64,000 bases of DNA from Occultella glacieicola (GTDB taxonomy: Bacteria > Actinomycetota > Actinomycetes > Actinomycetales > Beutenbergiaceae): contig NZ_SMNA01000007.1 of assembly GCF_004353825.1 (NCBI RefSeq), forward strand, positions 1 to 64,000, in the 5' to 3' direction. Shown piece after piece: positions 26,929 to 59,046 of this stretch. Numbering within the stretch: position 1 is the first letter of the stretch; each line of letters opens with the position of its first letter. The notes under the pieces were generated by a model that worked only from the letters and a program-made list of their open reading frames with translations, had not been told where the DNA came from and did no database searches. A program made the position numbers and the translations under genes.

Positions 26929-26980
26929 GGAAGGTTCCACCCACGACGCGCTGGTCAGGTGCGGGCCGGGCGCTGACGAT
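26929..26980 (+). promoter_or_regulatory. GGAAnnTTCC-ACC operator promoter (site 1) between the divergent patatin and WXG genes
   Basis: GGAAGGTTCC-ACCC, CTGG at +13, GACGAT after 36 nt. Confidence 0.7.
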
Positions 26981-27105
26981 GGTCAAGCGCCGATTGCTCG
27001 TGGCGTCCACGACCTGCCGACAACCCTGAACGACGCCGCGGCACCCGAATCACGCTGCGACATCCGAACAACACTCCGTTGACTGAACCACTCTGCGAGG
27101 ACCTG

Positions 27106-28023
27106 ATGAGCACTGTCACCCACGGCGGCGACGTCGATGCCCTGATCGCGACCGCGAGGGCCTACGCCGCCGGGGCGGAGCAGATCCGCACGATCTGCGT
27201 GCGTATCACGGTCGGACTGTGCCACACGATGATCTGGAACGGGCCGGACGCCCTGGCCGCACGCACCGCGTGGGAGCACGAATGGTCGCCGGCTCTCATG
27301 CGGGCGTCCGGCGCCCTGGTCGACGCCGGCCTGGAACTGGTCGGCCAGGCCGAGGACCAACTCCGCGCGAGCGGGGCGGACACGGCGGGATCGGGAAGCG
27401 GGGCCGGTGTTGCCGGCGCGACCACTGCCGCTGGTGTGTCCGGTGCGGCCGGGCCGGGCGACGGTGATGCCGGTACGGCCGTACCGGGCCGGTTCGGTGA
27501 CCTGCGGACGAACCTCGAGCGGCTACGTTCGTTCGCCATGAGCCTGCCGGAACTGGCGCTGCAGGCTCGCGCGCTGCGAACCTTCGGCGCCGTGGCGAAC
27601 AATCTCGCCACCGCGGACGTCGCGCGGGAGTTCGTCGAGGCAGGGCTCACCGGCGCCGAGCGTGTGGGCCTCGACGGACTGTCCGTCGTTGGCACTGTCC
27701 TCGACGCGGACGGGTTCGTGACCGGCATCGAGGAGCGGGACGTGACAGCGATCGTCCAGAACGGCACCTCCCTCGGCATCACCGCGGCAGCCCCGTGGAT
27801 CGGCTCGGCAGTCTCGGGCGGGGTGGGCGTGGCCTGGGGTGTCGGGAGCCTCGCCGGCGACATGATCTACGACGGTATCCAGGGCACCAGGTACAACGAG
27901 ATCCTCACCGAGATGACCGACGGGGCGTTCCGTGACAACGGGGCTCTCGGCATCGCACAGGTGCCAGGTCTCCTGGCGTTCGCCGCCTGGGAGGCGCTGA
28001 CCGAGGACGACACCGGCGAGTGA
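27106..28023 (+). CDS. WXG100-like protein with a C-terminal hydrophobic extension
   Basis: WNGPDA, LVGQAEDQLRAS, Gly/Ala linker, Gly-rich hydrophobic C-terminal domain; RBS GAGGA. Confidence 0.72.
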   Translation: MSTVTHGGDVDALIATARAYAAGAEQIRTICVRITVGLCHTMIWNGPDALAARTAWEHEWSPALMRASGALVDAGLELVGQAEDQLRASGADTAGSGSGAGVAGATTAAGVSGAAGPGDGDAGTAVPGRFGDLRTNLERLRSFAMSLPELALQARALRTFGAVANNLATADVAREFVEAGLTGAERVGLDGLSVVGTVLDADGFVTGIEERDVTAIVQNGTSLGITAAAPWIGSAVSGGVGVAWGVGSLAGDMIYDGIQGTRYNEILTEMTDGAFRDNGALGIAQVPGLLAFAAWEALTEDDTGE

Positions 28024-28164
28024 GGTCGGACCGATGAGCGAGTTCCCGAGTTGGGTCGGCGGCGGCCGTCGGCAGGGCGCGAGCCCGCCGATCGCAGACC
28101 GCGGCAGCGTCCCGACCGCTGCGCCGCCCCAGTGAGCCGGACCTGTGCGCGGCGCGCCGGGTGG

Positions 28165-32116: not shown

Positions 32117-32971
32117 ATGCTACGCGTGACGCTGCGGGGGTCTGGGGTGCCGACGGTGGTGCTCGGCAGCGGCGACACCCTGCTCGTGGGCCGGTCCCCG
32201 GACAGTGCGCTGCCCGAGGTCGACGCGGACACCCAACTGCATCTGACCGCCCTCGCGCTGCCCCGCGTCGCGCCGCACGTCTCCCGCGTCGTCGGCGAGG
32301 TGCAGGTCGGCGACGAGGTCGTGCGGCTGCGCTGGCGCGGCAGCACCGGGGCCCAGCTCTCCTCCCTTTTCGACGCCCCCGGTGGGGCCCGCCGGGTCGC
32401 CCTCTCCGAGGGCATGGCCGCCCTGTTGGACGAGGGCGAGAACCACCTGCTCATCCTGCGCGGGCGCCAGACGCCCACGGGCTCCTTCACCGACCTGGTG
32501 CTCGTCGTGGACGTCGAGGAGGTCCGCGACGAGCCCGCGCCGGTGCCGCTGGTCGCCGAGGGTGATCCCGACGGCGCCGCGACCGCCGACGCCCCGCACC
32601 TGGAGCGCTGGTCGCGCGAGTGGTACGTCGCGCTGGCCCTCGCCGAGCCCTGGCTGACCGGCGCGGACGACTACCCCCGGCCGCCGTCGAACCGGGAGAT
32701 CTACGAGCGGATCCTGCACTGGCGCGGCCACGCCTGGAACCTCGAACGCGCGCAGCGCGTGGACGACGCGATCCGCTCCGTGGCCCGCCTCGCGTTCGGC
32801 CCCGACGACGACCCGTTCACCGTGACGGAAGGCCGCGTGCAGAACGTGCGGTTCGCCGTCGGGCGCCGTGCCGCGGAGGTACGACTGGTGACGACGGCGG
32901 ACCTCGAGGCCGTCCACGAGGCCCGGTCAAGGGGCGCCGGTCTCAATCCCGAGGCTCCGACCGCGCCATAG
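32117..32971 (+). CDS. Probable FHA-like plus C-terminal HTH regulator
   Basis: LLVGR...PHVSR beta-rich N-domain; ALAEPWL...PPSNREIYERI...RVDDAI helical C-domain. Confidence 0.5.
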   Translation: MLRVTLRGSGVPTVVLGSGDTLLVGRSPDSALPEVDADTQLHLTALALPRVAPHVSRVVGEVQVGDEVVRLRWRGSTGAQLSSLFDAPGGARRVALSEGMAALLDEGENHLLILRGRQTPTGSFTDLVLVVDVEEVRDEPAPVPLVAEGDPDGAATADAPHLERWSREWYVALALAEPWLTGADDYPRPPSNREIYERILHWRGHAWNLERAQRVDDAIRSVARLAFGPDDDPFTVTEGRVQNVRFAVGRRAAEVRLVTTADLEAVHEARSRGAGLNPEAPTAP

Positions 32972-32980
32972 CGGCGGAAC
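32804..32980 (+). repeat. 177-bp direct repeat, copy 1
   Basis: Matches 34239-34415 with about 7 substitutions. Confidence 0.95.
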
Positions 32981-32986
32981 GTTCGA

Positions 32987-33144
32987 ATGGCCCAGAAGGC
33001 CCAGGAGGGCGCCGACTGCGCGAGGATGAGGCTCGCGGTCAAGGCGCTCCGCGCGACGAGTTGGACCGGCTGGGCAGCCGCGTTCGCCAACATCCTCAAG
33101 GCCGCCTCGGCGTCGAAGGCCGTCAGCGGCGACTCGCCGTCGGT
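32987..33144 (+). pseudogene. Internally deleted copy of the 5' part of WXG gene 34960
   Basis: Aligns to 35002-35243 with 15-nt and 66-nt deletions plus substitutions. Confidence 0.9.
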
Positions 33145-33481
33145 CTCGTCCCGATCTACGACCATGGGTGCACCTCGGGCGCGACGGAGCGTTTTCGGCG
33201 ATCCCTTCCCGATGGTCGACGCATTCGTCCAGGGTCCGCGATGCACGCGACACGGTCCGCGAACGGCGAGATCAGCCATAGCGCATGACTCGAGCCGCGT
33301 GCCGCCAGTTCCTCACGGAGGACTCGGATCGCCTTCGGCCCGACCCATGAATGTCCAGGAGTTCTGCTTCGGGCAACTCGGTCAACTGCTCGCAGCGTGT
33401 GATCCCGTTGACGGCCAGTTCTCGCGGGGCTGCCCAGTCGGCGGGGGTTGTCGTCGCTCCCGAGGTCGCCAGCGGTGGGGC

Positions 33482-34042
33482 TCAGTGACCGACGACGCCC
33501 TGGATCTCCACCATCACCTGGATCGCGGCGATCGTCTCCCGCTTCTTCAGGTTCTCCACCTTCTCCGGCCCGCCCAGCGAACGCAGCGGCACGAAGGTGA
33601 ACGACTGATCGTAGGGCAGCTCACCGTGCGCCTCCACGGCCCGTGGGAAGATGCCCCAGTTCAGCGTCCGGGACAGGTAAAACGTCCCCGCAATCTTCAG
33701 CATCTCTAGGAACCCGTTCAGTTCGCTGTTGAGACCAGCGACACGACCCTCACGGTACTTGATGCCCACGAAACCGACGCTCGGCTCCCACGTGATGAGG
33801 TCGGCAAGCCCCGTCACCATGATGGGAATCGCTATGCCGTCCCCCTGGGTCTTGCCGATGCATTCGGCCAGCTCCGTCTCGTACACGGCGGGGTTGATCA
33901 CGCGTAGGAAGCCCGATGCGAAGGTGCCGTACCCGTAGGTCTCCCACAGGTCGATCACGTCGTCGGGAACACGGCCCCGGTAGGCCTCGATGACCCCCGG
34001 TTCAACCGGTCCGTGCGGCACGAAGTCCGTAATCTCGATCAT
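33482..34042 (-). CDS. GAD-like/DUF1851 (Tdi1-type) toxin immunity protein
   Basis: YRGRVPD-LWETYGYG-F-GFLRVINP; F-FVPL-LGG-EKVENL; visibly lower GC than the flanks. Confidence 0.82.
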   Translation of the reverse strand: MIEITDFVPHGPVEPGVIEAYRGRVPDDVIDLWETYGYGTFASGFLRVINPAVYETELAECIGKTQGDGIAIPIMVTGLADLITWEPSVGFVGIKYREGRVAGLNSELNGFLEMLKIAGTFYLSRTLNWGIFPRAVEAHGELPYDQSFTFVPLRSLGGPEKVENLKKRETIAAIQVMVEIQGVVGH

Positions 34043-34051
34043 GGTCCCACC

Positions 34052-34238: not shown

Positions 34239-34415
34239 GACGACGACCCGTTCACCGTGACGGAAGGCCGCGTGCAGAACGTGCGGTTCGCCGTCGGGCG
34301 CCTTGCCGCGGAGGTACGACTGGTGACGACGGCGGACCTCGAGGCCGTCCACGAGGCCCGGTCACAGGGCGCCGGCCTCAATCCTGGGGCTCCGACCGCG
34401 CCGTAGCGGCGGAAC
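34239..34415 (+). repeat. 177-bp direct repeat, copy 2
   Basis: Duplicate of the 3' end of gene 32117 and the start of the operator. Confidence 0.95.
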
Positions 34416-34463
34416 CTTCCACCCCCTGTTCGCTGGCTTGCGCGGCGGCGGCGCTCCTAGCGT
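34411..34463 (+). promoter_or_regulatory. GGAAnnTTCC-ACC operator promoter (site 2)
   Basis: GGAACCTTCC-ACCCC, CTGG at +13, TAGCGT after 37 nt. Confidence 0.8.
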
Positions 34464-34788: not shown

Positions 34789-34810
34789 CCCCACGGGCCG
34801 CCGTCGGGCC

Positions 34811-34863
34811 GGAAGTTTCCACCCCCACGGCGCTGGCCCCGGCCACCACCGGCTGCCTAGCGT
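34811..34863 (+). promoter_or_regulatory. GGAAnnTTCC-ACC operator promoter (site 3)
   Basis: GGAAGTTTCC-ACCCC, CTGG at +13, TAGCGT after 37 nt. Confidence 0.8.
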
Positions 34864-34959: not shown

Positions 34960-36234
34960 ATGAGCGGGTTCCAGGGCGCCGACGTCAGTGGCCTCGACGA
35001 GATGGCCCAGAAGGCCCAGGAGGGCGCCGACTACGCGAAGATGATCGCGAAGGCGCTGAAGCTCGTGGTCAAGGCGCTCCGCGCGATGAGCTGGACCGGC
35101 TGGGCGGCCGCGTTCGCCAACTACCTCGAGTTCACCGTCATCCCGTGGATCGAGACCACCGGCGAGGCGCTCGAGCGGTTCGCCAACATCCTCAAGGCCG
35201 CCTCGGCCCTGCAGAAGGCCGTCAGCGGCGACTCGCCGTCGGTGTCCATCCCGGCCAGCGCCTACACCAGCCCGACCATGCCGGCCGGCACGGCGGTCAA
35301 CCCGCCGATGCTGTCCGCGCCGCTGCCGGCCATCTCGAACTCGCAGATGCCGACCGGGGCCGCCGGCGACGGCGCCGTGGTCATCACCCCGACGGGCGTC
35401 GGCAGCCGCTCCAGCTCGCTCGGCAACACCGGCGCGAGCGGCGGCGGCGCCACGATCGTCACTCCGGACGGGCTGACCATCCGGTGGGACGGCGCAGGCA
35501 CGCTCGGGCTGTCCACCGGCGGGTCGGCGGCCGGCTCGACCGGCCTGCCCGCCGCGCTCACCACCCCGGGCGCGGCCTCGGCCGCACTCGGCGGTGGAGC
35601 CGCGGCGATCGCCCCGGTGGCCGCCGCGGCACTCACCTCGGGTGGCGCTGCTTCCGGCTCCGGCCCGACGGCGGCCGGTGGCTCGGGCAGTTCGGGCTCG
35701 CTCGGCGCCGGGTCGCTCGGGTCGACCGCATTCGGGTCCGGCTCGGGCGGCGGGTCCGGCTCAGCTGGCGGGTCCGGCTCGGGCGGCGGCCTCGGCTCGG
35801 GCGGCGGCTTCGGCTCGGGTGGCGGCGGGCTCGGCTCGGGTGGCCTCGGCTCCGGCTCGGCCGGTCCCGGCGGCTCGACCGGCTCCGGCGGCGCGAGTGG
35901 ATCCGGCGGTTCGACCGGCGCCGGCTCGACCGGCTCCGCCGCGGGCCTGGGCTCCGGGTCGCTGGGCCGCGGTGGCCCGAGCATCGCCGCGGGTGACCCG
36001 GCCACGTCGTCGGCTCCCGTCACGTTCGGCGGCGTCGGCGGGTCGAGCATCGGCACCGCAACCGGCGGGTCCGCCCCGATCCTGGGCGCGGACACCGTCT
36101 CGGGCGGCTCCTCGACGAACCCCGCCCTCCTCGCGGCCCCGCTCGGGCTCGCCGGACTGGGCACCGCGGCACTCGGTGCCCTGCGCCGGAGGGACGGTGA
36201 TCTGCCCGAGGGGCTCGATGACGACGAGGACTGA
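34960..36234 (+). CDS. WXG-like N-domain with a long Gly/Ser stalk and C-terminal membrane anchor
   Basis: FQGADV, WTG, LKAASALQKAVS, (GSGG)n, hydrophobic segment followed by RRR. Confidence 0.75.
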   Translation: MSGFQGADVSGLDEMAQKAQEGADYAKMIAKALKLVVKALRAMSWTGWAAAFANYLEFTVIPWIETTGEALERFANILKAASALQKAVSGDSPSVSIPASAYTSPTMPAGTAVNPPMLSAPLPAISNSQMPTGAAGDGAVVITPTGVGSRSSSLGNTGASGGGATIVTPDGLTIRWDGAGTLGLSTGGSAAGSTGLPAALTTPGAASAALGGGAAAIAPVAAAALTSGGAASGSGPTAAGGSGSSGSLGAGSLGSTAFGSGSGGGSGSAGGSGSGGGLGSGGGFGSGGGGLGSGGLGSGSAGPGGSTGSGGASGSGGSTGAGSTGSAAGLGSGSLGRGGPSIAAGDPATSSAPVTFGGVGGSSIGTATGGSAPILGADTVSGGSSTNPALLAAPLGLAGLGTAALGALRRRDGDLPEGLDDDED

Positions 36235-36354: not shown

Positions 36355-36624
36355 ATGAGCACCACCGTCTACGGGATGGACATCACCGCCGCGCGCGACC
36401 TGGTCAGGGTGATGAACTCCGACGCCGACGTGATCAACCAGCTGACGGCCCAACTGACCCAGCAGCTCGAGGCGACCCCCTGGTTCGGCCCGGACGCGCA
36501 GCGGTTCACAAGTGACTGGCAAGGCCAGTACGTGCCCGCCCTGCAGAACGTGGTCCAGGCCCTCCAGGAGAACGCGACGATCCTCAGCCAGCAGGCCGAC
36601 GACCAGGAGCGCGCCTCCTCCTGA
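36355..36624 (+). CDS. WXG100-family protein (89 aa)
   Basis: YGMDI, WFGPDA, LSQQADDQERASS; RBS AAGGA. Confidence 0.9.
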   Translation: MSTTVYGMDITAARDLVRVMNSDADVINQLTAQLTQQLEATPWFGPDAQRFTSDWQGQYVPALQNVVQALQENATILSQQADDQERASS

Positions 36625-36756: not shown

Positions 36757-37260
36757 TCAGCCGGCCGCCCTCGCGACGACACGAGCCAGTTCCCGCCACG
36801 CGGCCTCGGTCGGTTCGGTGAGTGCGAACGAGGTCGGCCAGAGACCGCTGGCGTCGTCGAGGTCCGCCTGCACGCTGAAGCCGAAGGTCGAGTACCGCTC
36901 CTTGTCCTGCTGGCCGCTGCGGAAGAAGCACAGCACCTTCCCCTTCTTCGCGTAGCCGGGCTGGCCGTAGTACAGCTTCGGCGCCAGGTCCGGCGCGGCC
37001 TCCCTCACGATCGCGTGCACGCGCTCCGCCAGCAGCCGGTCGGACTCGGGCATCTGGGCGATCTTGGCCAGCAGGTCCGCCTCGTCGGCCGCGGCCTTGT
37101 CGGTGCGGCTGCCACGCTTGGCCTGGGTCTTCAGTTCCGCGGCGCGTTCCTTGACCGCGGCCCGTTCCTGGGCGGACAGGCCCGCTTCTGTGCCCTTGCT
37201 GCCCTCGCTGCCCTTGCTGCCCTTGCCCTGCGTGCCGTTCGTCGACTTGGTGGCCATCAC
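36757..37260 (-). CDS. DUF1801 (YdhG-like) protein
   Basis: LAPKLYYGQPGYA, CFFR, RYSTFGF and WPTSF motifs. Confidence 0.82.
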   Translation of the reverse strand: MMATKSTNGTQGKGSKGSEGSKGTEAGLSAQERAAVKERAAELKTQAKRGSRTDKAAADEADLLAKIAQMPESDRLLAERVHAIVREAAPDLAPKLYYGQPGYAKKGKVLCFFRSGQQDKERYSTFGFSVQADLDDASGLWPTSFALTEPTEAAWRELARVVARAAG

Positions 37261-37387
37261 TGATCCTCTGCTCGGTGGTGATGGTCGCGGTCTGCGACCC
37301 CTGACTCCACGGTAGGGACCTCGGAGCGGCCGGGGCTTCTCGATTCCTGCTCGACGGGGACTGGCGTCCAGTGGAGCCGGAAGTCGC

Positions 37388-38212
37388 CTACGCCGCGGTG
37401 ACCGGCGCAGGCTCCGCGTGGTCTAGGGCCCACTCCAATGCGTAGTCGGCGACCTCCTGCCAGCCCGGTTCCGCGCAGATCCAGTGCGAGCGTCCCGCGA
37501 ACTCGTGGTACTCGGTGAGGGAAGGGGACTTGGCCCAGTGCTTCGCATTGGACCTGTTCACCGAGGGCGGCATGATGTGGTCCTCGCTACCGCCGATGAA
37601 CAGCAGCGGGGAGCGTTCGATCGAGTAGTCGACCCAGGTCTCCTGCCGACCCGGCTTGAGGTTGGCGATGAGCCCGTAGGCCCACACCCAGTTGCCGGGC
37701 GCCGCGATGGCGTACTTCTCCCACACCGCGTCGGAGTCCTCCCTCGACAAGGTGTTCGCGAACGCGTAGTGGAACTCCTCCTGGGTGAACGCGACGGCCT
37801 TGTGAAAGTTGGCCGGGTTCTTCAGGGCCGGGAAGAGGGAGCGCACCTGCGACAGCGGGCTCACCCGAACTCCCTCCGTCGGGGCGGAGTCGACCACGAC
37901 GCCCGCCGCGCCGAGGCCGCGCGCGAGGAGCAACTGGGTCAGCGCGCCGCCGAAGGAGTGGCCCATGATGATGGGCGGCCGGGGCAGTGCCTCGATCTGG
38001 GCCGCGAGGTGGTCGACGGTCTCCGGAACGGTCAGGTTCGCGATGACGTCGGGGTTCTTGCGGAGCTCCTCCACCTCGATCTCGAAGCCGGGGTAGGCGG
38101 GCGTGAGCACGGTGAATCCCTTGGCTTCGAAGTGCTCCCTCCAGCCCTCCCAACTGCGGGGGGTCATCCACAAGCCGTGCACGAGCACGATGGTGTCCGG
38201 GGTGGTCGACAT
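37388..38212 (-). CDS. Alpha/beta hydrolase
   Basis: HGLW, GHSFGG, DH and RSH motifs. Confidence 0.9.
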   Translation of the reverse strand: MSTTPDTIVLVHGLWMTPRSWEGWREHFEAKGFTVLTPAYPGFEIEVEELRKNPDVIANLTVPETVDHLAAQIEALPRPPIIMGHSFGGALTQLLLARGLGAAGVVVDSAPTEGVRVSPLSQVRSLFPALKNPANFHKAVAFTQEEFHYAFANTLSREDSDAVWEKYAIAAPGNWVWAYGLIANLKPGRQETWVDYSIERSPLLFIGGSEDHIMPPSVNRSNAKHWAKSPSLTEYHEFAGRSHWICAEPGWQEVADYALEWALDHAEPAPVTAA

Positions 38213-46751: not shown

Positions 46752-49700
46752 TGGCACGGTCTGAGAAGGCGCGGAGCAGGCGCGCTCCGTTGGGCTGGTG
46801 GCGTTCACGCACCGCGGGGCGCGGCCGTGACCGCGGCTTCGTGGAGGCCGGCGTGGCCGCCGCCGGCGGGCTGCTCGTGGTCGGCGCCGTGGTCGGCAAC
46901 GGCGTGGCCGCCGCGCTGATCGACATGTCCGACGGGCAGACCTGGCTGGCCGACGACGACGGCAGGGTGGTGCAGATCAACCCGGCCACCGGCCAGCCCG
47001 AGCGACGCCTGATCATCGGCGAACCCGGCAGCGAACTCGAGGTCTCCCAGCGGGACGGGCAGCTCATCGTCACCGAGCTGACCACCGGGATGATCACGGC
47101 CGTCGACCTCGCCAGCCTGGTTGCCAGCGGGGCCCGCGGGGTGGATCCCGACACCGAGGTGCTCGTCGGCGGCGGCCAGGTGGTCCTGGTCGACCTCGAA
47201 CCGGGCACCGTCCGGGCCGTGGACCCGCTCACGCTGACCGACCTCGGCCGCCCGTTCCGCACCGACGACCTGGCCGACGCCGTGATCGACGACGAGGGGT
47301 CGGTCTGGATCATCGGCATCGACGGCACCCTCACCGAGCTCGACTACTCCGCGGATGCCGCCGAGTTCGTCACGTCCGTGTCCCGGCCGGTCGCCGGGGC
47401 GGGGCCGCAGTCCCGGTTGGTGCCGCACGCAGCCGGCGTGACCGTGTTCGCCCCGGACCAGGGGTCCGTGGTGCAGGCGGGCGCCGGGCGGGACCTCGCC
47501 GTCAGCGTCGCCGCCCTCGAGGGCACGGTCGCCGAGGCGGACTTCGCCCCTGCCGACCTGGTGCCCGCCTCCGCCGAGGACCTCGGCAGGGTGTTCCTGC
47601 TCGCGGACGGGCGGATCCTGAACGTGGACGTCGGCGCCCTCGGCTGCGAGCGGCCCGGCAGCCCGGCGGTGTTCGCCGGCAAGGTGTACGTGCCCTGCCT
47701 GGGCACCGGGCGGGTCATCGTCCTGGACTCGGGCGGTGCCCGGGCCGGGGCGGACATCGTGGTCCCCGGTGGCGGCGACCCCACGCTCGTGGTCGACGAC
47801 GGCCGGCTCTACGTGAGCACGCCGGCCGACGGCCGGATCGTGGTCGTCCAGCCGGACGGCTCCACCCAGATGGTCGACGTCGCCGCCGCCGAGGTCCCGG
47901 TCCAGGACGTGGACCGGCCCACCCCGGTGCGGCCCACGGTTCCCGTGGTGGCCCCGCCGGTGAACGTCCCGCCGAACACGCCCACGCCCCCGGTGAACAC
48001 GCCGCCCGGCGTCCCGAACCCTCCGGAGACGCCGGACGACCCGACGCCGCCGGACACCCCGGGTACCGACCCCACGAACAACCCCGGCGGAGGCGACGAC
48101 AGCGACGACGACGGCACCGGGGGCAACAGCAACGACGCCGACAAGGCGCCCTCCGGGGTGGCCGCCCAGCTGCGTGCGGACGGGACCGTGGCGCTGACCT
48201 GGACGCCGCCGGTGACCACCCCCGAGACCGTCCGGGTGACCGGCTCGGACGGCGTCACCGACCGGGAGGTCGCCCCGGATGCGACCTCACTGGACGTCCC
48301 CGGCCTGTCCTGCGGCTCGATGATCACCCTCACCGTGACCGCCACCCACGCCGACGGCAGCACCGGCGTCGGCTCGACCGAGATCCGCACGGCGGACTGC
48401 GCAACCGGGGTGAACCCGGCCGACCTGGCGCCCACCGACGTGCAGGCGTCCCTGCGCGCGGACGAGAGCGTCCGGGTCACCTGGACGGCCCCCGTCGAGA
48501 CCCCGAACGAGATCCGGGTGACGAGCTCGGACGGCACCGCCAACGAGGTGCTCGCCGCCGGCGCCACCACCGTGGACCTGGCCGGACTCACCTGTGGACG
48601 GACCCTCACGTTCACCGTGACCGCCCACCACGACGGCGGGATCAGCGGCACCGACTCGGCTACCGCGGCGACCGTCGACTGCCCGGTGGACCCTGCCGAC
48701 CTCGCCCCGACCGGGGCGAGCGCGGCCCTGCGCGCCGACGAGAGCGTGCGGGTGAGCTGGACCGCGCCCGTGGTCGCGCCGAACGACTACCGGGTCACCA
48801 GCTCCGACGGCGCCGCCAGCCAGATGGTCGCCGCGGGTGCCACGTCGGTGGACCTGCCCGGTCTCACCTGTGGCCGGACGCTGACCTTCACGATCACCGC
48901 GAACCATGAAGGCGGTCAGACCGGTCAGGCGAACGCGAGTGCCCGCACCGCCGACTGCCCGACGACGCCGCCCCCCACGGTGGAGGCGACCGCCCCCACG
49001 AACGTGACCGCGACCCTGAACGGCAACAACACCGTCACCGTGTCCTGGACCGCGGCCTCCTCCGGCGCGGACGAGTACCGGGTCTCACCGAACGGCGGCG
49101 CGGCCACGTCCGTGACGGGGACCTCCGCGACACTGACCCTGGCCTCGGGCACCTACACGTTCACCGTCACCACCCAGCTCGACGCCACCAGCGCGACCTC
49201 CGCCGCGAGCAACGCGGTGACGGTGGCGGGGGCGCCCGGGGCCCCGGGGACGCCGGCCATCGGTGGCGTCACGAACGACGGCTCCCGGGTGCAGGCCAAC
49301 GCGTCCTGGGCCGCCGCCCCCGCGAACGGTGCCGCCGTCACCTACACGGTCACCTACACCGGCGGCTCGCTCACCACGACGAACACGTCGACGCCGATCA
49401 CGATCAACTGCTCCGGTGCGAGCCCGTGCGCCGCCGGCGGCACCCTGACCGTCACCGTCACCCCGTCGAACGCGATCGGCACCGGTCCCGCGTCGTCGTC
49501 GTCCGCGTCCGTGCCCGCGCCGCCGCCCCCGCCGCCGGCGAACGGGGACTCGGTGGTCAGTCGCATCCAGTGGTCGGAGCCCGGCCTCTACGACGAGAAC
49601 ATCCCGTTCAGTGTCTGGGTCTCCGCACCCGCCGGGTGGGCCGCGCACACCGGGACCTGCACCCTGTACGTCTCCGGCCCGGGGATCAACGACTCCCGGG

Positions 49701-50131
49701 TGATCGCGTGCAACTCGGGAGGGTCCGTGTACGGGAACGCCGCCCGCGGAATGGCCACGATCACCGCCTACGTCGTGGCCACCGGCGCGGGTGTCAACGC
49801 GACCTCGGCGACGGTCAGCGAGCAGTTGCCGTCCCGGGGCGACTGGGCGCATTGCACCCTCAGCCCGCGCATCTGCACCCAGCCCAACACCTTCGACCCC
49901 GACGATCCCGACGTCGAGGTGACCCCGATCCCGTGGACCCCGCCCGAGGTGCCCAGCCCGCCCGTGCTCGCGGCCGGTTTCGGCCTGCTCGGCGCCGCCG
50001 GCCTGCTGCGCACCCAGCGCCGCCTCGCCGACGTCCCCACCCTCACGACCACGGACGGCGCCGCGCCCACCCCGGCCGCGACCGCCGTCGTCCATGAACG
50101 CCCCGACTCGACCGGAGACCAGCCCCGATGA
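46751..50131 (+). CDS. Large surface protein: TM, beta-propeller-like region, Pro linker, about 5 FN3 repeats, C-terminal hydrophobic segment
   Basis: Start overlaps the EssC stop; three similar AP-V-A-LRAD-V-WT-P...GL(S/T)CG-TVTA-H...DC repeats. Confidence 0.82.
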   Translation: MARSEKARSRRAPLGWWRSRTAGRGRDRGFVEAGVAAAGGLLVVGAVVGNGVAAALIDMSDGQTWLADDDGRVVQINPATGQPERRLIIGEPGSELEVSQRDGQLIVTELTTGMITAVDLASLVASGARGVDPDTEVLVGGGQVVLVDLEPGTVRAVDPLTLTDLGRPFRTDDLADAVIDDEGSVWIIGIDGTLTELDYSADAAEFVTSVSRPVAGAGPQSRLVPHAAGVTVFAPDQGSVVQAGAGRDLAVSVAALEGTVAEADFAPADLVPASAEDLGRVFLLADGRILNVDVGALGCERPGSPAVFAGKVYVPCLGTGRVIVLDSGGARAGADIVVPGGGDPTLVVDDGRLYVSTPADGRIVVVQPDGSTQMVDVAAAEVPVQDVDRPTPVRPTVPVVAPPVNVPPNTPTPPVNTPPGVPNPPETPDDPTPPDTPGTDPTNNPGGGDDSDDDGTGGNSNDADKAPSGVAAQLRADGTVALTWTPPVTTPETVRVTGSDGVTDREVAPDATSLDVPGLSCGSMITLTVTATHADGSTGVGSTEIRTADCATGVNPADLAPTDVQASLRADESVRVTWTAPVETPNEIRVTSSDGTANEVLAAGATTVDLAGLTCGRTLTFTVTAHHDGGISGTDSATAATVDCPVDPADLAPTGASAALRADESVRVSWTAPVVAPNDYRVTSSDGAASQMVAAGATSVDLPGLTCGRTLTFTITANHEGGQTGQANASARTADCPTTPPPTVEATAPTNVTATLNGNNTVTVSWTAASSGADEYRVSPNGGAATSVTGTSATLTLASGTYTFTVTTQLDATSATSAASNAVTVAGAPGAPGTPAIGGVTNDGSRVQANASWAAAPANGAAVTYTVTYTGGSLTTTNTSTPITINCSGASPCAAGGTLTVTVTPSNAIGTGPASSSSASVPAPPPPPPANGDSVVSRIQWSEPGLYDENIPFSVWVSAPAGWAAHTGTCTLYVSGPGINDSRVIACNSGGSVYGNAARGMATITAYVVATGAGVNATSATVSEQLPSRGDWAHCTLSPRICTQPNTFDPDDPDVEVTPIPWTPPEVPSPPVLAAGFGLLGAAGLLRTQRRLADVPTLTTTDGAAPTPAATAVVHERPDSTGDQPR

Positions 50132-51111
50132 CCGAGAACCCCCTGGCCCCCACCGAGGCGGACGTCGCCCGGTTCCGCCTGCTCCACGACCAGGTGGTCG
50201 ACGCCGTGTCCGGCGCCCTGCAGGGCAAGCGGCCGGTGATCGAGCTCGCCACCGTGTCCCTGTTCGCGGGCGGGCACGTGCTCCTCGAGGACGTCCCCGG
50301 AACTGGCAAGACCACGCTGGCCCGGGCCATCGCCGCGGCCCTCGGCGGCTCCTCCCGGCGGATCCAGTTCACCCCGGACCTGCTGCCGGCCGACGTCACC
50401 GGCACCTCCGTGTTCGAGCCCGGCACCGGCGAGATCAGTTTCCGGCCCGGTCCGGTGTTCACGAACGTGCTGCTCGCCGACGAGATCAACCGGGCCGCCG
50501 CGAAGACCCAGTCCGCGCTCCTGGAGGTGATGGCCGAGCGCACCGTCACCGTCGACGGGATCGGCCACACCGTGCCGGACCCGTTCGTGGTGATCGCCAC
50601 CCAGAACCCGATCGACCTGGACGGCACCTACCGGCTCCCGGAGGCCCAGCTCGACCGGTTCCTGGTCCGGATCACGCTCGGCTACCCCGACGTCGAGCAC
50701 GAGCTCGCCGTGCTGCGGCCGGGGTCGCGCGCCGGAGTGGTCGAGGAGGTCCCCGAGGTCACCACCCCCGAGGCCGTGGCCGCCGCGTCCCGGCAGCTGC
50801 GGCACCTGCATGTCGCCGAACCGATCCTCGCCTACATCCGCGCCGTCGGGGCAGCCACGCGCGCGGACGACCGGCTCCGGCTCGGCGCGAGCACCCGGGC
50901 CCTGCGCGGCCTGGTCGCCGCCACCCAGGTCCACGCCGCCGCCCAGGGCCGCCACTTCGTGGTCCCCAGCGACGTGCAGCGCCTCGCCGGCCCCGTGCTC
51001 GTCCACCGCCTCGTGCCGACCCGGGACGCCCTGCTCGCGGGGGAGAGCACCGAGGCCGTGGTGGCCGACGCCGTCGGCAGCGTGGAGGCGCCGCGCCCGG
51101 TGCCCGCATGA
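50128..51111 (+). CDS. moxR: MoxR-family AAA+ ATPase
   Basis: EDVPGTGKT, RIQFTPDLLP, LLADEINR, ATQNP and LPEAQLDRF motifs. Confidence 0.95.
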   Translation: MTENPLAPTEADVARFRLLHDQVVDAVSGALQGKRPVIELATVSLFAGGHVLLEDVPGTGKTTLARAIAAALGGSSRRIQFTPDLLPADVTGTSVFEPGTGEISFRPGPVFTNVLLADEINRAAAKTQSALLEVMAERTVTVDGIGHTVPDPFVVIATQNPIDLDGTYRLPEAQLDRFLVRITLGYPDVEHELAVLRPGSRAGVVEEVPEVTTPEAVAAASRQLRHLHVAEPILAYIRAVGAATRADDRLRLGASTRALRGLVAATQVHAAAQGRHFVVPSDVQRLAGPVLVHRLVPTRDALLAGESTEAVVADAVGSVEAPRPVPA

Positions 51112-51168
51112 GGCTGGACCAGCCGCCGGCTCCCGATCCGGTTCTCGCCCAGACCGGCCCTCCTCGAC

Positions 51169-51288
51169 CGTGCGATTCTGCGGCTCATTCGCCCGATCTG
51201 CCGCGCAATTGCACGCTCGCGACTGAGTGCTCCGGTCGCGGGTGTGGTTCTGCGGCGCACGCCGGCTATCCGCCGCGGAGTCGCACCC
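51169..51288. repeat. Two related imperfect palindromes (REP-like) in the moxR-DUF58 gap
   Basis: Stems at 51169-51215 and 51240-51288 share gtg-g-ttctgcggc...gccgcg-a-t-gcac. Confidence 0.65.
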
Positions 51289-51340
51289 TCACGTGCGGTG
51301 GGATGGCCGGACGGAGCCATCGCTTGCTGGGGTCGGTCCG

Positions 51341-52510
51341 GTGCGGCTGACCGGGCGGGGGTGGGCCGTGCTCATCTCGACGGCGGCGCTGCTCGGGTTC
51401 GGGCTGTGGGCGAGGTACCCGGGTCTCGTCGGGCTCGGCGCCGTCCTCGCGGTCGCCCTGGGGTGCGCGCTCGTGACCGTGCTGGTGCCCGCGCCGCTGC
51501 GGATCCGGCGACGGGTCCGCCCGCCGCGGGTGGCCAGGCTCGAGGAGGCCTCGGCGCACGTCGAGGTCACGAACGCCTCGACCTGGCTGGCGCAGTCGGT
51601 CACCGGGCACGACCTGGTGGGCGGTCGGCGGACCCCGTTCCTGGTGCCGCGGATGGCGCCCGGGGCGACCGTGAGCACCGAGGTTCCGATCCCCACCACC
51701 CACCGCGGCGTCATCGGCTTCGGTCCGCTGACCCTGCACCGGTTCTCCTTCCTCGACCTGCTCGAGGTCCGCCAGGAGCACGGGGACCGGGCCTCCGTAC
51801 TCGTCGAGCCCCGGATCCTGGACGCACTCGGCCTGCCGGCCGGGGCGCGCCGCGGGCACGTCGGCGCGGACGAGCGGATCGCCCACGGCGGCACCGACCT
51901 GGTCGGGCTGCGCGAGTACGTCGCCGGGGACGACCTGCGCCGACTGCACTGGGCCACTAGCGCGCGCCGGGCGACCCTGATGGTCCGTGAGGACGCCGAC
52001 CCCTCCGCGCCGCACCTGACCGTGCTCCTCGACGACCGTGCCGACTCGTACGCCGGTGCCCACGACGCCGCCCTCGACGGTGAGGGTTTCGAGGAGGCCG
52101 TCGACGTCGCCGCCAGCCTGCTCACCGCGGCCGCCGGCGTCGAGAGCCCGGCCCGCGTGGTCACCATCGGCGGTGGTCTCGACGAGCAGATCCCCGCGCC
52201 GGCGCCCGCGGCCGGTCCGGCCGGGCTGGACCCGCACGTGCTCGGCGCCCTCGCCCGGCTCGAACGGTCCGACGGCGGGCACGGCTCCGGCCTGTTCGCG
52301 GGCTCCCCAGACGTGCTCGCCGTGATCACCGGTCCGAACAGCGACCTCGGCGACCTGCTGCTCACGGCGTCCGGGGCGCCGTCGGGCGTCGTGCTGGTGG
52401 TGGATCCGCGGCCCGAGGCCCTCGTCTCCGCCCAGCAGGGCGTGCTGGTCCTGCGTGGCCCGCGCGCCGAGGAACTCGTCCACGGCTGGCGGACGGCGGT
52501 GGCCCGATGA
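51341..52510 (+). CDS. DUF58 (vWA-related) MoxR partner
   Basis: LREYVAGDDLRRLHWATSAR-LMVRE, FEEAVDVAAS, N-terminal TM pair. Confidence 0.9.
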   Translation: MRLTGRGWAVLISTAALLGFGLWARYPGLVGLGAVLAVALGCALVTVLVPAPLRIRRRVRPPRVARLEEASAHVEVTNASTWLAQSVTGHDLVGGRRTPFLVPRMAPGATVSTEVPIPTTHRGVIGFGPLTLHRFSFLDLLEVRQEHGDRASVLVEPRILDALGLPAGARRGHVGADERIAHGGTDLVGLREYVAGDDLRRLHWATSARRATLMVREDADPSAPHLTVLLDDRADSYAGAHDAALDGEGFEEAVDVAASLLTAAAGVESPARVVTIGGGLDEQIPAPAPAAGPAGLDPHVLGALARLERSDGGHGSGLFAGSPDVLAVITGPNSDLGDLLLTASGAPSGVVLVVDPRPEALVSAQQGVLVLRGPRAEELVHGWRTAVAR

Positions 52511-54915
52511 TCCGGTTCGCCACGGCCGCCTGGTCCGCGCTCGTGCTGGCGCTGGCCACGCTCCCGCTCGCCGCCGGGTACTCCTCGCCGGTCGCCGCCG
52601 GGGTCCTGATCGGCTGCGCGATCGTGCCGTTCGGCATCGCCGCCCTGGGGCGGGTGGCCAGGGTCGGGCGCGGCTGGGTGGCCGTGGCGGGCACGGTACT
52701 CGCCGTCAGCGCGGCCCTGATCCTGCTCGACGGCGTGGAGGCCGAGGCCCAGGCACAGCCCGGGTGGCGGGCCAGCCCCGCACTGAGCCTGCTCGGGCCG
52801 CTCATCGACTCCGTGCCGCGGCTCCTCACCGCGCCACGCCCGGCCCCGGCCGACGTCGGCTACCTGGTACCGACGGCGTTACTCGTCTGGATCGTCGCGC
52901 TCGGTGTGGCCGTAGTGGCGGTCGGGCGCGCCCGGGCGACCGCGGCGCCGCTCGTCGGCGCGGTGGCCCTGCTCGTCGCCGGCGGCCTCCTGACCGCCGG
53001 GCGTGGGGATGCCACCGGCTGGATCGCCCTGGCCACCGCGGTGGTGCTGCTGCTCGGCTGGGTGCTGCTGCCCTCGCAGGCGCGGGCGTCGTCGCGGGTG
53101 GGTGGGGATGCGGACCCGGGCGGGGCCGGCGGCGGGACCCGTCCCGGCCTCTCGGGAGGCGGCCCCGACGGGTCGACCGGCGCCGCGCGGCGCCGCGTGC
53201 TGGTGCCCGCGGTCGCGGCCGTGATCCTCGGGTCCTTCGCGCTCACGGCGGTGGCCGTGCCCACCTCCCGGTCCTTCGAGCCGCGCACGCTGGTGCCGCC
53301 GCCGGAGCTGCCCCTGGCCGCCACGAACCCGATCCCCAACCTGGCCCTCTGGAACGCCCGGCCGAATTTCCCGCTGCTGAGCGTCAGCCCGGACGGTGCG
53401 AGGCTGCCGGAGCGGCTCACGGTCGCCGCGCTGCCGGATTTCGACGGCGCCGCCTGGACCATCGACGCCCGGCTGCGCGCAGTCGGGGTCGTCGACGAGC
53501 CCGACCTGCAGCCCGGCACCCGGCAGCGGGAGGTCGCCTACGTGCTCGCCGACGCCGCGCTCGCCGGCGTGTGGGTGCCGTCCGCCGGGATGGCCGCGGC
53601 GGTCTCCGGAGCGGACGTGCTCATGGACACCGACACCGGCGTCCTGGTGGCCCCCGACGGGCTCGGCAGCGACCCGGTCTCGGTGCGTGCCCTGGTGGAC
53701 GCGCCAACCGACGCCGAGATCGACCGGGCCGGGACGCCGATGGCCGAGGTCGCCGCCCGGTACCTGGAACTGCCCCGGATCCCGGCGTCCCTGCGTGAGG
53801 AGTCCGTCGCGCTGACGGAGGGCACCCACTCCCGTTGGGAGCAGGCGCTCGCGATCGCCGAGGGTGTGCGGGGCGAGCGAACCCTTGACGTGGGGGCACC
53901 GTCGGGATCGTCCTACGGGCGCATCCAGGAGTTCCTCTTCCTGCCGGAGGCCGATGGCGGCCAGGTCGGCACCTCCGAGCAGTTCGCCGCGTCCTTCGCC
54001 GTGCTCGCCCGGGCGGCCGGCCTGCCCACCCGCCTCGTGATCGGCTTCGACCTCACCGAGGCCGTGGCCGCGGCGGACGGTTCGGTGACGGTCACCGGCG
54101 ACGACGCCCGCATGTGGGCCGAGGTCTACTTCGCGCGCGCCGGCTGGGTCGCGGTCGACCCGAGCCCGGCCACCAGCATCGACACCGGCGACCTCCCGGA
54201 ACCGCCGACGGGCGAGGACCAGCCGGACCGTCCCGAGGACGTCGGCGCCGAGGACGATCAGGACGCCGAGGAGAACGTGGCCGAGCCCGGTGACGACGCC
54301 GACGGCCGGACCGGAATGAGCGTGGCCACGGGCCTGACCCTGCTCGCCGGGCTGGCGTTTCTCGGGGTGCTGGCCGTGGTCGCGCTGGCCATCGCCCGCG
54401 CGGTGCGCCGGCGCCGGTGGCGCGCCGCCGGGGCGGTGGGTGCCTGGGCCCTGGTGCTCGACGCGGCCGTGCTCGCCGGCCGGCCGGTGCCGCGCTCCAG
54501 TGCCGCACCGGAGGCGGCGCGCGCGTTGGCCGGCGCTGCCGAGACCGGACATTCCGCGCCGGACCGGAGCCCGGTACGTTCGGTCTCGGCGGCCCCGGAG
54601 GATCGGGGAACGGCCGCGCTGATGCTGGCCGAGCGCGCCGAGCGCGCCGCCTTCGGACCACAGCCACGCGCGGCGGGGAGCACCGCCGTCGGGCATTCGG
54701 CCCCAATCGGAGCACCAACCGAGGCGACGTCCGACTGGGAGTTGGCCACCGCCGTCGAGCGTGACCTGCGCGCGGGTGCGAGCACGTGGCGACGCGCGGT
54801 GTGGTGGGTCTCGCCGGCCGTGCTCAGGGGCCGTAGGGCCTCCGGTCAGGACGACCGGATGCGTGGCGAAAAGGCGGACCCGGTGGGTCGCCGTGAAAGT
54901 CAGGGTGACGAATGA
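52507..54915 (+). CDS. Polytopic transglutaminase-like (TgpA-type) protein with a degenerate catalytic triad
   Basis: Multiple TMs; GTSEQFA, ARAAGLPTRLVIGF, RMWAEVYF and GWVAVDP motifs. Confidence 0.88.
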   Translation: MIRFATAAWSALVLALATLPLAAGYSSPVAAGVLIGCAIVPFGIAALGRVARVGRGWVAVAGTVLAVSAALILLDGVEAEAQAQPGWRASPALSLLGPLIDSVPRLLTAPRPAPADVGYLVPTALLVWIVALGVAVVAVGRARATAAPLVGAVALLVAGGLLTAGRGDATGWIALATAVVLLLGWVLLPSQARASSRVGGDADPGGAGGGTRPGLSGGGPDGSTGAARRRVLVPAVAAVILGSFALTAVAVPTSRSFEPRTLVPPPELPLAATNPIPNLALWNARPNFPLLSVSPDGARLPERLTVAALPDFDGAAWTIDARLRAVGVVDEPDLQPGTRQREVAYVLADAALAGVWVPSAGMAAAVSGADVLMDTDTGVLVAPDGLGSDPVSVRALVDAPTDAEIDRAGTPMAEVAARYLELPRIPASLREESVALTEGTHSRWEQALAIAEGVRGERTLDVGAPSGSSYGRIQEFLFLPEADGGQVGTSEQFAASFAVLARAAGLPTRLVIGFDLTEAVAAADGSVTVTGDDARMWAEVYFARAGWVAVDPSPATSIDTGDLPEPPTGEDQPDRPEDVGAEDDQDAEENVAEPGDDADGRTGMSVATGLTLLAGLAFLGVLAVVALAIARAVRRRRWRAAGAVGAWALVLDAAVLAGRPVPRSSAAPEAARALAGAAETGHSAPDRSPVRSVSAAPEDRGTAALMLAERAERAAFGPQPRAAGSTAVGHSAPIGAPTEATSDWELATAVERDLRAGASTWRRAVWWVSPAVLRGRRASGQDDRMRGEKADPVGRRESQGDE

Positions 54916-57122: not shown

Positions 57123-57170
57123 GGGAGATGGTGAGTCGGCCTGGCGGAGGCGTGCGGGCCGGTCGGGCGA

Positions 57171-58943
57171 TCAGCGACAGAGCGTGTCGGTGGAGCCGGC
57201 TTCCAGGCCGGTCTCGATGAGGGCGTAGCCCACGACGGCGTAGCACTCGCCGGTCGCGTCCGGGTCGAGGCCCTCGACGACGAACTCGTCCGCGTCGGGC
57301 GTGAGTTGGCGGAGCACGGTGGGAGGCGAGCCGTCGGCCGGGACGCTCACGACGAGGAGGTAGTCGACCTCGGTCGCGGGCGGAGCCCAGGTGAGGAGCA
57401 CCGACGTGCCCTGCGGGGTGAGCACGGCGTTGACCGGTGCCAGGTCGGGGTTGCCGACGGTGGGTTGCGGCGGCGCGTCACCCGTCTGGACGTCGGTCGG
57501 GTCCACCGGCACCACCGCGTCGGTCTCCGTCGGCGTCGGGTCCGGTTCCTCCTCGCCGCCGAGCAGCGCGGACCCGATTCCGAATGCCGCGCCGACCAGC
57601 AGCGCGCCGCCGACGAACGCCACGATCCGGCGCCAAGTGGTCCCGGACCCACCGCCGGGTTCGGCGGGGGCGGCGTCGGGTGCCGCGGGCTCCGGATCCG
57701 GAGCCAGGCCGGTGGCGTCGTCGTCGACGGGGGTGGGCACCGGCTGGCGCTGGACGTGGGCGAGCACGGACGGGGCGAGTGGGGACGGCTGCGGCGCGGG
57801 CTCGGGCATCGCACCGGGCGAGGCGGCCATCGGGGCCTCTGCAGCGGACACGGCCGAGACGGCCGGTGACGAGGACTCACCGGCTGCGGTCGCCGGTGCT
57901 GCTGCGGCTCCCGCGGCCGTGACCGGCGCAGGGGTGGTGGACGACGTTGCCCCGGCCGCCGCCCCGGCCGACTCCGGATCCCAGGACCGGTCCTCGGTCC
58001 GGATCGAGCGCAGTCGCTCCAGCGCTTGTGCGGCAGTGGGGCGCCGCTCGGGGTCGGGGTGCAGGCCGGCCTCGATCAGGTCGTGCAACCCCGCGGGCAG
58101 GTCGCCCGAGTCCAGTGGGCGGCGCGCCCCGGTGCGGACCCGGCGCAGGTAGGACAACGCCGTGTCGTCGTGGGGGTCGAGCGCGGCGAACGGGGCGCGG
58201 CCGTCGAGGAGCGTGAACAGGGTGGAGCCGAGCGACCAGACGTCGTCCGCCTCGGTCGGGGACACGCCGTCGAGCACCTGGGGCGAGGCGTGCCGGTAGC
58301 TGAACCGCTCCACGGACGCGGTGTGACCGGCATCCGCCATCCGCGCGATCCCGAAGTCGCTGAGCACGTAGGACGTGGGCAGCAGCAGGACGTTCTGCGG
58401 CTTGACGTCCCGGTGCAGCACCCCGCGGGCGTGCGCGAACGCGAGGGCGTCGGCCACCGCGGTGCCGGCGGCCACCACCTCCGAGACCGGCAGCGCGCCG
58501 TGCGCACGGACCCGGTCGTGCAGCGAGCCGAGGTCGTGGAAGTCCATGATCAGGCAGGGGTCGCCCGCGGACGTCGTGGTGGTGTCCAGCACGTTCACGA
58601 TGTGTGGATGCTGGCGGCCCAGCGACACGGTGATCGCGAGTTCCCGCTCGAACCGGGCCGCCGCCGACGGCTCCGCGGTGATCACCTTGATCGCGACGTC
58701 CCGGTCGAGGCTGTCCTGGCGAGCCCGGTACACGACGCTGTCCCCGCCGGTCGCGACCTTGACCAGGTGGGAGTAGCCCGCGACGGACACGGAGACCGCT
58801 CCATCCGCGCCGTGGCCGGGCGGCTCACCGCGGGGACTCGTCGCGTCGTTCGGGCCCGCCGGGCCGGGCCGGCGGCCGGACAGCGCGCCCACAGCCTCCG
58901 CGAGCGGGCGTGGGGCCGCTGGTGCCCAGTCGTCATCGGACAC
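57171..58943 (-). CDS. Membrane Hanks-type Ser/Thr kinase with an extracellular FN3-like domain
   Basis: VAIK, HRDVKPQN, DFG, DVWSLG, TM segment, LAPVNAV-LTWAPP. Confidence 0.92.
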   Translation of the reverse strand: MSDDDWAPAAPRPLAEAVGALSGRRPGPAGPNDATSPRGEPPGHGADGAVSVSVAGYSHLVKVATGGDSVVYRARQDSLDRDVAIKVITAEPSAAARFERELAITVSLGRQHPHIVNVLDTTTTSAGDPCLIMDFHDLGSLHDRVRAHGALPVSEVVAAGTAVADALAFAHARGVLHRDVKPQNVLLLPTSYVLSDFGIARMADAGHTASVERFSYRHASPQVLDGVSPTEADDVWSLGSTLFTLLDGRAPFAALDPHDDTALSYLRRVRTGARRPLDSGDLPAGLHDLIEAGLHPDPERRPTAAQALERLRSIRTEDRSWDPESAGAAAGATSSTTPAPVTAAGAAAAPATAAGESSSPAVSAVSAAEAPMAASPGAMPEPAPQPSPLAPSVLAHVQRQPVPTPVDDDATGLAPDPEPAAPDAAPAEPGGGSGTTWRRIVAFVGGALLVGAAFGIGSALLGGEEEPDPTPTETDAVVPVDPTDVQTGDAPPQPTVGNPDLAPVNAVLTPQGTSVLLTWAPPATEVDYLLVVSVPADGSPPTVLRQLTPDADEFVVEGLDPDATGECYAVVGYALIETGLEAGSTDTLCR

Positions 58944-58994
58944 GCGAACCCCCTCCCCGTTCCGGCGCCGCCGATCCCGGCGCACCTGGTTCCG

Positions 58995-59046
58995 AGGATA
59001 GGCGGTACGCCCCGAGCGCGAGGCGTGCCCGGCGGTGGAACGTTCC
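58995..59046 (-). promoter_or_regulatory. GGAAnnTTCC-ACC operator promoter (site 5)
   Basis: Minus strand GCGGAACGTTCC-ACCG, then TATCCT after 36 nt, upstream of the kinase. Confidence 0.75.

Follow-up and report, generated by a model that had tools for sequence, protein, structure and literature searches.

We analysed a 64,000-nt stretch of the Occultella glacieicola genome (contig NZ_SMNA01000007.1, positions 1 to 64,000; hereafter the window), and found that it carries a real regulon, one that seems not to have been described before and for which there is a strong candidate regulator. Five copies of a palindromic operator, of the form GG(C)GGAA-nn-TTCCACC, stand before promoters of a cluster of Esx genes. 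From sequence comparison and structural models, the likely reader of this operator is RegF, encoded at 32117-32971 within the cluster, rather than the adjacent regulator of the LAL type (large ATP-binding regulators of the LuxR family). We give the model as a whole, of operator, activator and linked kinase, a probability of about 0.72. The palindromes had been described in a sequence-only reading of the window, which named no regulator; our candidate lies within its interval. That reading did not recognise the motif from any described regulon, and our literature searches agree, having found neither operator nor regulator: queries for either of the two motifs described below, or for an Esx regulator joining FHA to a helix-turn-helix (HTH), returned nothing relevant, subscription journals lying outside their coverage.

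Operator sites and promoter geometry

The sequence CGGAANNTTCCACC matches the window exactly five times, at 26928, 34410, 34810 and 42080 on the forward strand and at 59034-59047 on the reverse strand, and has no match in 100 dinucleotide shuffles. All five palindromes of the sequence-only reading are thereby found where it placed them, its coordinates being those of the 10-bp core, one base after the start of CGGAANNTTCCACC. The operators and their promoter elements are:

26926..26941, + strand: operator 1, core 26929-26938; -35-like TGGTCA 26952-26957; -10-like GACGAT 26975-26980
34408..34423, + strand: operator 2, core 34411-34420; -35-like TGGCTT 34434-34439; -10 TAGCGT 34458-34463
34808..34823, + strand: operator 3, core 34811-34820; -35-like TGGCCC 34834-34839; -10 TAGCGT 34858-34863
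42078..42093, + strand: operator 4, core 42081-42090; -35-like TGGACC 42104-42109; -10 TAGCGT 42127-42132
59034..59049, - strand: operator 5, core 59037-59046; poor -35; -10-like TATCCT 58995-59000

The -10-like hexamers (GACGAT, TAGCGT three times, TATCCT) lie 36, 37, 37, 36 and 36 nt past TTCC, as had been claimed, and CTGG does begin at the 13th base past TTCC in four of the five sites. The unusual hexamer of operator 1 is found again, as an NACGAT/CAGCAT-type -10, at the orthologous promoter of relatives. The motif is not frequent at random positions: beside the empty shuffles, the whole 5.34-Mb genome holds a single extra exact match (C2:101447), plus a variant site at C22:7344. The former has no -35, no -10 and no promoter geometry, and is taken as chance. 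With two mismatches allowed the genomic excess is small, 13 found against 4.5 expected. A matrix was trained on 144 sites from other genera, the two Occultella loci being left out, the reversed genome serving as null; its top six scores in this genome are the five window sites and C22:7344, the kinase site (operator 5) at 19.7 being barely above the reversed-genome best of 18.6.

We then compared the 80 best of 162 loci around regF. GGAAnnTTCC occurs 211 times in 79 of them and the 80th has a site just beyond its fetched edge, so that the site is present at all 80; five control palindromes gave 0-6 sites each. TAnnnT follows at 36 or 37 nt past TTCC in 150 of the 211 sites, against one in the reverse orientation. 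Among these 150 sites, 145 have T at +24 and 131 have G at +26, which shows CTGG to be the start of a weak -35 and no part of the operator. The common -35-like hexamers are TCGACC, TCGACG, TAGCCC and TGGCCG, with the pattern TnG(A/C)C at +24, and their spacing of 17-18 nt to the -10 is the housekeeping-sigma arrangement. Thus the operator lies 13 nt upstream of a weak, degenerate -35 and is phased to it, and this geometry holds across several bacterial families. This geometry supports the earlier proposal of an activator site just upstream of the -35; that the site serves activation is probable, as discussed below. In all eight distal sites examined an ATG follows the -10 by 6-8 nt, as with leaderless starts, so at these sites transcription would start at the ATG and the operator would be centred near -54.5.

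The site precedes esx1 in 73/73 loci, the AesB-like gene in 68/70 and the upstream WXG gene in 14/14; these WXG and AesB-like promoters are the conserved core of the regulon. It stands directly upstream of eccC in 12/59 loci and of the Fn3 gene in 5/56, and never before esx2 (0/60). The kinase site is found in all four Occultella genomes, including G001-G003, and in none of 11 other loci. The association with WXG, EssC and kinase genes noticed earlier thus holds in the window, but beyond it the kinase site is confined to Occultella and the eccC site to a minority. None of the 80 regF genes has the operator within 320 nt upstream, but a -10-like or extended -10-like element is often seen there (TAGGCT, TGTGGTTGGAT; window 32084-32089; L059-L096), which suggests that regF is expressed independently of the operator.

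Twenty-one related eccC genes of the Nocardioides type (within L058-L096) carry the core in frame, 370-440 nt before the stop codon, written nnG GAA nnT TCC over five different middle residues. In these genes 6.6% of the Glu codons are GAA, and 3.3% of codons end in T. The keeping of such rare codons points to selection on the double-stranded DNA of the operator even within coding sequence, a clear case of dual coding; the site may serve an internal promoter of the Fn3-MoxR operon, where -10 spacing is irregular.

Extra hits had been expected to reveal distant substrates, and they do so in this genome and in six relatives. The C22:7344 site stands before a WXG-lipase gene (C22:6086-7285; L016), and the distal sites of the relatives (L108, L110, L113, L115-L117) precede an unknown gene of 167-171 aa, followed in five of the six by a WXG gene. 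In O. glacieicola the short unknown gene appears deleted, with its first codons fused to the WXG-lipase gene. G001 has a strong operator at L109:4299, combined with a weaker -10 and a leaderless ATG, ahead of an ankyrin-like lipoprotein gene that may be an immunity member of the regulon. The composite motifs provide a sequence-only detector of type VII secretion system (T7SS) substrates and of further defence payloads at a distance from the core cluster.

RegF, its paralogue and their probable operators

32117..32971, + strand: regF, candidate activator with FHA-fold N-terminus, linker Thr156 and predicted LuxR/GerE-like C-terminus

We found regF in 13 of 41 genomes (relatives and O. glacieicola itself), and the same genomes have clustered sites. 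It is rare in the phylum, occurring in one of 400 others, yet spread over Beutenbergiaceae/Ruaniaceae, Cellulomonadaceae, Microbacteriaceae, Nocardioidaceae, Intrasporangiaceae, Jiangellaceae and Pseudonocardiaceae; carriers include the culturable genera Cellulomonas, Nocardioides and Microbacterium. Of 301 genomes in the order, 11 match regF strongly and eight of these hold 3-5 strict composite sites, whereas of the other 290 two have one low-scoring hit and none has more, even though by a count of the matches listed about 110 of the 290 carry a distant FHA-EccC in a frame of at least 1,200 aa. Single composite hits in G469 and G517 were set aside as low-scoring and without an Esx gene nearby, and those CGGAAnnTTCCGCC hits inspected among the scattered ones in the regF-less genomes G020, G024 and G029 have no -10 at the right offset. 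The RegF tree is a quick version, and we draw no claim on transfer from it.

What singles out RegF is that it is the only family common to most of the loci with an HTH-like fold, and that the site follows regF when the payload changes. At L094 (G703:C414) regF and the kinase, all that remains of the cluster, flank a gene for a 2,966-aa SpvB/TcdB-mid/RHS protein that carries the operator-promoter (score 37.9), with no adjoining Esx gene; two other FHA-eccC regions fetched from the same genome have no site. At L062 and L042 the site precedes an Fn3 module and Esx is not adjacent.

An AlphaFold2 model of RegF built from 78 sequences has a pLDDT (predicted local distance difference test) of 84. 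Structure comparison makes residues 1-136 an FHA fold (Z 11.9, root-mean-square deviation (rmsd) 1.9, 99 aligned); Foldseek matches the model to FHA/SMAD-FHA chains at E about 1e-4, and ESM Atlas places the whole protein in an FHA cluster at 0.96. These models make a strong case for the FHA fold. Its phosphate-binding GR and SR residues (G25-R26, S56-R57) are invariant in all 80 loci, as is Thr156, which lies beside a linker of low confidence in the model. An apparent Thr-to-Asp replacement at position 156 in three loci was rejected as an alignment shift. The C-terminus (about 157-260) is helical, and when folded alone gave LuxR/NarL/GerE domains in 13 of the top 16 rows at Z 5.1-5.9, with ChrA, VqmA, QscR, TraR, GerE, RhlR, DegU, VpsT and NarL as best matches; GerE itself aligns over 67/67 residues (Z 5.6, rmsd 2.6). 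The model lends moderate support to a LuxR-like fold here, and at the sequence level RegF is not a GerE member.

The O. glacieicola genome has a separate Esr1-type locus on contig C1, with a PP2C-like open reading frame (ORF), Esr (epibiont sensing and response) being a pathway with a link to Esx (PMC13622651; Wang et al., bioRxiv 2026). Between its kinase and esrA lies P0177, a 244-aa gene (C1:49292-50023; L135), at the position where Table S3 of that paper, in the part available, lists an 'FHA_2' EsrG in related species. The P0177 family is large (4,912 hits), and hhalign aligns it to RegF over 173 columns at 85.6% and E 5.5e-6, linker Thr on Thr; by this comparison canonical Esr loci hold, in P0177, a distant paralogue of RegF.

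When palindromes at a constant spacing from TAnnnT were sought without bias, GGAA-2-TTCC came back from 19 of 20 regF loci, and ATGGGGAsnnsTCCCCAT emerged in 12 of 21 other loci, chosen as Esx or paralogue regions. This second palindrome stands mostly before WXG100 genes (sites in L157-L175); a -35 of the same kind begins with its last T, which puts the centre of this palindrome 10 bp closer to the -35 than that of the RegF site. In strict form it occurs in 12 of the 26 genomes that have the paralogue, and in none of the 15 that do not, the counts in a second family being 5/8 against 0/11 with several genomes incomplete. O. glacieicola has relaxed copies only, at C14:3744 and C21:187819, before two WXG-like genes. 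Since the second palindrome co-occurs with the paralogue and is missing from all 80 regF loci, regulator and site change together, and this is the strongest indirect support for RegF as reader. There is perhaps an even chance that RegF and its paralogue belong to an unrecognised family of FHA-LuxR activators that forms the transcriptional output of Esr sensing across Actinomycetes, each with its own operator (GGAAnnTTCC near -54.5; ATGGGGAsnnsTCCCCAT near -44.5). If so, one cell could run two insulated kinase-to-promoter circuits, and the operators would serve as a genome-wide list of secreted defence effectors, both Esx substrates and RHS proteins.

Proposed mechanism and its alternatives

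We propose that a sensor of Fn3, MoxR, DUF58 and transglutaminase proteins would trigger the membrane kinase, which would phosphorylate Thr156 in the RegF linker. The FHA domain would bind this phosphothreonine in cis or trans and so free or dimerise the DNA-binding domain, and the RegF dimer, on two GGAA half-sites centred near -54.5, would recruit housekeeping-sigma polymerase to the weak promoters of the Esx genes. We regard binding of the site by a RegF dimer as very probable, and activation rather than repression as equally probable; control by the linked kinase through Thr156 is somewhat favoured. The stimulus might be a surface-attacking competitor or epibiont, a tentative suggestion drawn by analogy with Esr.

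Several observations weigh against this proposal. The control palindrome AGGAnnTCCT scored 74 sites in the 80 loci, taken as a candidate codon effect, and 61 of the 211 operators have no TAnnnT at 36/37 nt. Three regF genomes (G548, G564 and G593) have no strict composite match, with relaxed sites at the same genes. The genomes counted for linkage of regF and site are related, not independent, and close homologues of the kinase, transglutaminase and eccC share the regF distribution as one block, so that co-occurrence alone does not single out RegF. No PP2C phosphatase was found by Pfam among the ORFs scanned in the locus. RegF has no Pfam or NCBIfam match, and phmmer and hmmsearch against the PDB were blank or weak. 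For its C-terminus the HTH Z scores are within the chance range for helical domains, Foldseek returned nothing at E<=0.001, PF00196 (GerE) matches none of 78 members, and hhalign to LuxR profiles gave a probability of about 1% for RegF and 13% for the paralogue; likewise, ESM Atlas searched with the C-terminus and local hhalign against profiles of LuxR and FHA gave blank or weak results. Finally, of the canonical FHA motifs GR, SRxH and SxNG, as given in the accessible part of PMC8339232, RegF replaces the His of SRxH (SRVV) and the Asn of SxNG (STGA/STEA), which makes its binding of phosphothreonine uncertain.

This last point, together with the presence elsewhere in the genome of a complete Esr1 pathway that has a kinase and phosphatase of its own, favours the alternative that survives best: RegF activates, with an input other than phosphorylation of its own Thr156, the degenerate FHA domain binding another phosphoprotein (kinase activation loop, EsrG1 or EccC) or working without phosphate. 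Thr156 is, however, invariant beside the low-confidence linker and aligned with the Thr of the paralogue, and the kinase remains next to regF in L094, L070 and L152; we regard this alternative as unlikely, though worth keeping in view. The sign of regulation is not given by sequence alone, and RegF could instead repress, or work as an anti-activator, and come off the site when phosphorylated. Repressor sites as a rule overlap core promoter elements, but this one lies wholly upstream of a weak -35 and is phased to it, and no consensus sigma-70 promoter was found in 32000-43000, so repression seems improbable.

The reader might also be encoded elsewhere, as a regulator or as an extracytoplasmic function (ECF) sigma factor with GGAA as its -35. 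GGAA(C) resembles the -35 elements of SigH/SigE/SigR, and ECF-type sigma factors exist in all the genomes concerned. TTCC is, however, as invariant as GGAA, and the stretch 16-18 nt past GGAA holds no conserved GTT/CGT element; an ECF promoter is rejected for want of the matching -10. Clustered composite sites are absent from close relatives without regF, and G013 has regF and sites without the paralogue, which leaves a reader encoded elsewhere quite improbable. The adjacent LAL regulator (39164-41911), divergent from eccC, has a clear LuxR HTH (PF00196, E 1e-16) and shares its intergenic region with operator 4, but it is absent from the same interval of G001 and G003, which keep all sites, and LAL-like hits occur in 3 of 80 regF loci, the gene travelling with two hydrolase genes; it is a passenger, its role as reader largely refuted. 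An RNA hairpin, terminator or processing site, suggested by the many copies directly after regF or esx1 stop codons, is rejected with hardly a doubt, since the flanking pair is C.A in 121 of 150 sites, the loop would be 2-4 nt, there is no U-run, Rfam gives no match, and sites also stand before divergent genes and within eccC.

The locus and related systems

By its gene content the cluster around regF is an Esx plus Esr-like module. Its other features are:

27106..28023, + strand: WXG-like candidate Esx substrate, 305 aa, W-N-G hairpin N-terminus, 33% identity to the WXG protein encoded from 36355
32797..33153, + strand: duplication scar, with regF 3' end, truncated operator (32976) and decayed aesB-like fragments
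33482..34042, - strand: Tdi1/GAD-like immunity gene (PF08906, PF08887), passenger in inserted segment
34510..34788, + strand: WXG100-like Esx1, 92 aa (PF06013 E 7e-4, TIGR03930 E 1e-5, both below cut-off)
34960..36234, + strand: AesB-like candidate substrate, with helical N-terminus, Gly-rich region, hydrophobic then charged tail
36355..36624, + strand: WXG100-like Esx2, 89 aa, no operator of its own
36757..41911, - strand: passenger block, by Pfam with DUF1801, two alpha/beta hydrolases and the LAL-type regulator (AAA_16 + GerE, 39164-41911)
42174..46751, + strand: FHA-fused EccC/EssC ATPase, 1525 aa (PF01580, PF00498)
46751..54915, + strand: Esr-like sensor module by Pfam, with Fn3 surface protein (EsrA-like), MoxR 50128-51111, DUF58 to 52510 and transglutaminase 52507-54915
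57171..58943, - strand: membrane Ser/Thr kinase (EsrE-like; PF00069), probable RegF partner, orthologue in the same 13/41 genomes as regF

The product of 27106..28023 has no Pfam match. The AesB-like protein has the helical N-terminus (helicity read from sequence) and Gly-rich region of AesB effectors, and their GYNVP motif was not found in it. At the N-terminus of EccC/EssC there is a weak YukD match (E 0.045), and its TIGR03928/03924/03925 matches are below cut-off. No Pfam match to EccB, EccD or mycosin was found among 40 ORFs scanned in the locus. A second, distant eccC (26% identity) lies at C21:334682-337552, with neither composite motif in the 17 kb around it.

The main text of PMC13622651, as far as available, reports that in Schaalia odontolytica Saccharibacteria are limited by Esx, and that phosphorylation at a Thr within a disordered region switches EsrG1. 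It states the step from Esr phosphorylation to transcription as undetermined, and in its available part 'operator', 'transcription factor' and 'DNA-binding' are absent. For this missing step in the newly described anti-parasite pathway the regulon would supply named candidates: two paralogous regulators, one phosphosite and two operators. Our locus resembles Esr in its Fn3 surface protein, MoxR (EsrB), DUF58 (EsrC), transglutaminase (EsrD), membrane Ser/Thr kinase (EsrE) and FHA output (EsrG), the middle four identified by Pfam and the last as FHA-EccC together with the FHA fold of RegF, itself homologous to the ~250-aa gene syntenic with 'FHA_2 EsrG'; also in an FHA domain fused to EccC and in WXG100 and Gly-rich substrates. 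It differs in that no PP2C was found and the sensor has 1,126 aa against about 2,000 in Esr. EsrA is an Ig/Fn3 filament with a beta-propeller; for the EsrA-like protein here the Pfam scan shows Fn3 repeats and no Big_9 match. Unlike the S. odontolytica Esx, which includes EccB, EccD and S8 proteases (PMC13622651, part available), it yielded none of EccB, EccD and mycosin in the scanned ORFs. Lacking a phosphatase gene among those ORFs, the locus falls short of full Esr membership. In the searched part of Table S3 the entries for Occultella, Pseudactinotalea, Phycicoccus HDW14 and Cellulomonas iranensis belong to another, phosphatase-bearing locus, and the strings 'FHA+GerE/LuxR/HTH' were not found there (PMC13622651). 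The T7SSd of Actinomycetota, in the accessible part of its description, has an FHA-bearing EssC, WXG100, a Ser/Thr kinase and a large Ig-like surface protein (PMC11217815); FHA-EssC, WXG100 and kinase are all found here, whereas that part does not mention MoxR, a transglutaminase or a dedicated regulator.

RegF itself recalls several known regulators. EmbR, linked to the kinase PknH in Mycobacterium tuberculosis, is a transcription factor with an OmpR/SARP domain at its N-terminal end and FHA at its C-terminal end that controls cell-wall genes. RegF is likewise kinase-linked and predicted to join FHA to a DNA-binding domain, but has FHA at the N-terminus and a LuxR-like C-terminus; the match to structure 2fez covers FHA only. 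NarL/DosR/LuxR-family activators act on inverted repeats. RegF shares with them a likeness to the tetra-helical HTH and a palindromic site near the -35, the site lying 10 bp further upstream than the -35-abutting site of the paralogue; it differs in insertions in the C-terminal domain and in its input, which would be Thr phosphorylation rather than Asp phosphorylation or an autoinducer. The FHA+LuxR proteins that a census reports for Nocardia and Rhodococcus, restricted to the two genera and given neither function nor site in the part of the source available, are recognised by standard domain models (PMC3466318); RegF has, by description only, the same two domain types, but escapes Pfam and NCBIfam. 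Like GarA/OdhI, an intramolecular phosphothreonine-FHA switch (PMC8339232), RegF has a conserved Thr in a flexible segment beside its FHA domain, whereas GarA has canonical FHA motifs and no DNA-binding domain.

Some features of the window are local. The sequence-only reading had noticed a broken sixth operator copy at 32976, and it is indeed there (GGAACGTTCG). As 32797-32984, which takes in the 3' end of regF, matches 34232-34419 at 94.7% over 188 bp, the copy is the scar of a recent duplication; the scar is missing from G001-G003, where regF leads directly into operator 2. The recent duplication/insertion (32797-34419) surrounds the Tdi1-like immunity gene, with a short remnant ahead of it that we take to look like the tail of a toxin gene. 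A DUF4303 gene (54912-55505), possibly another orphan immunity gene, is inserted after the transglutaminase gene and is absent from G001-G003. Between the upstream WXG-like gene and regF lie a DUF222 gene (28165-30312) and an MFS gene with internal repeats (30391-32000); in several relatives the WXG-like gene and regF are adjacent.

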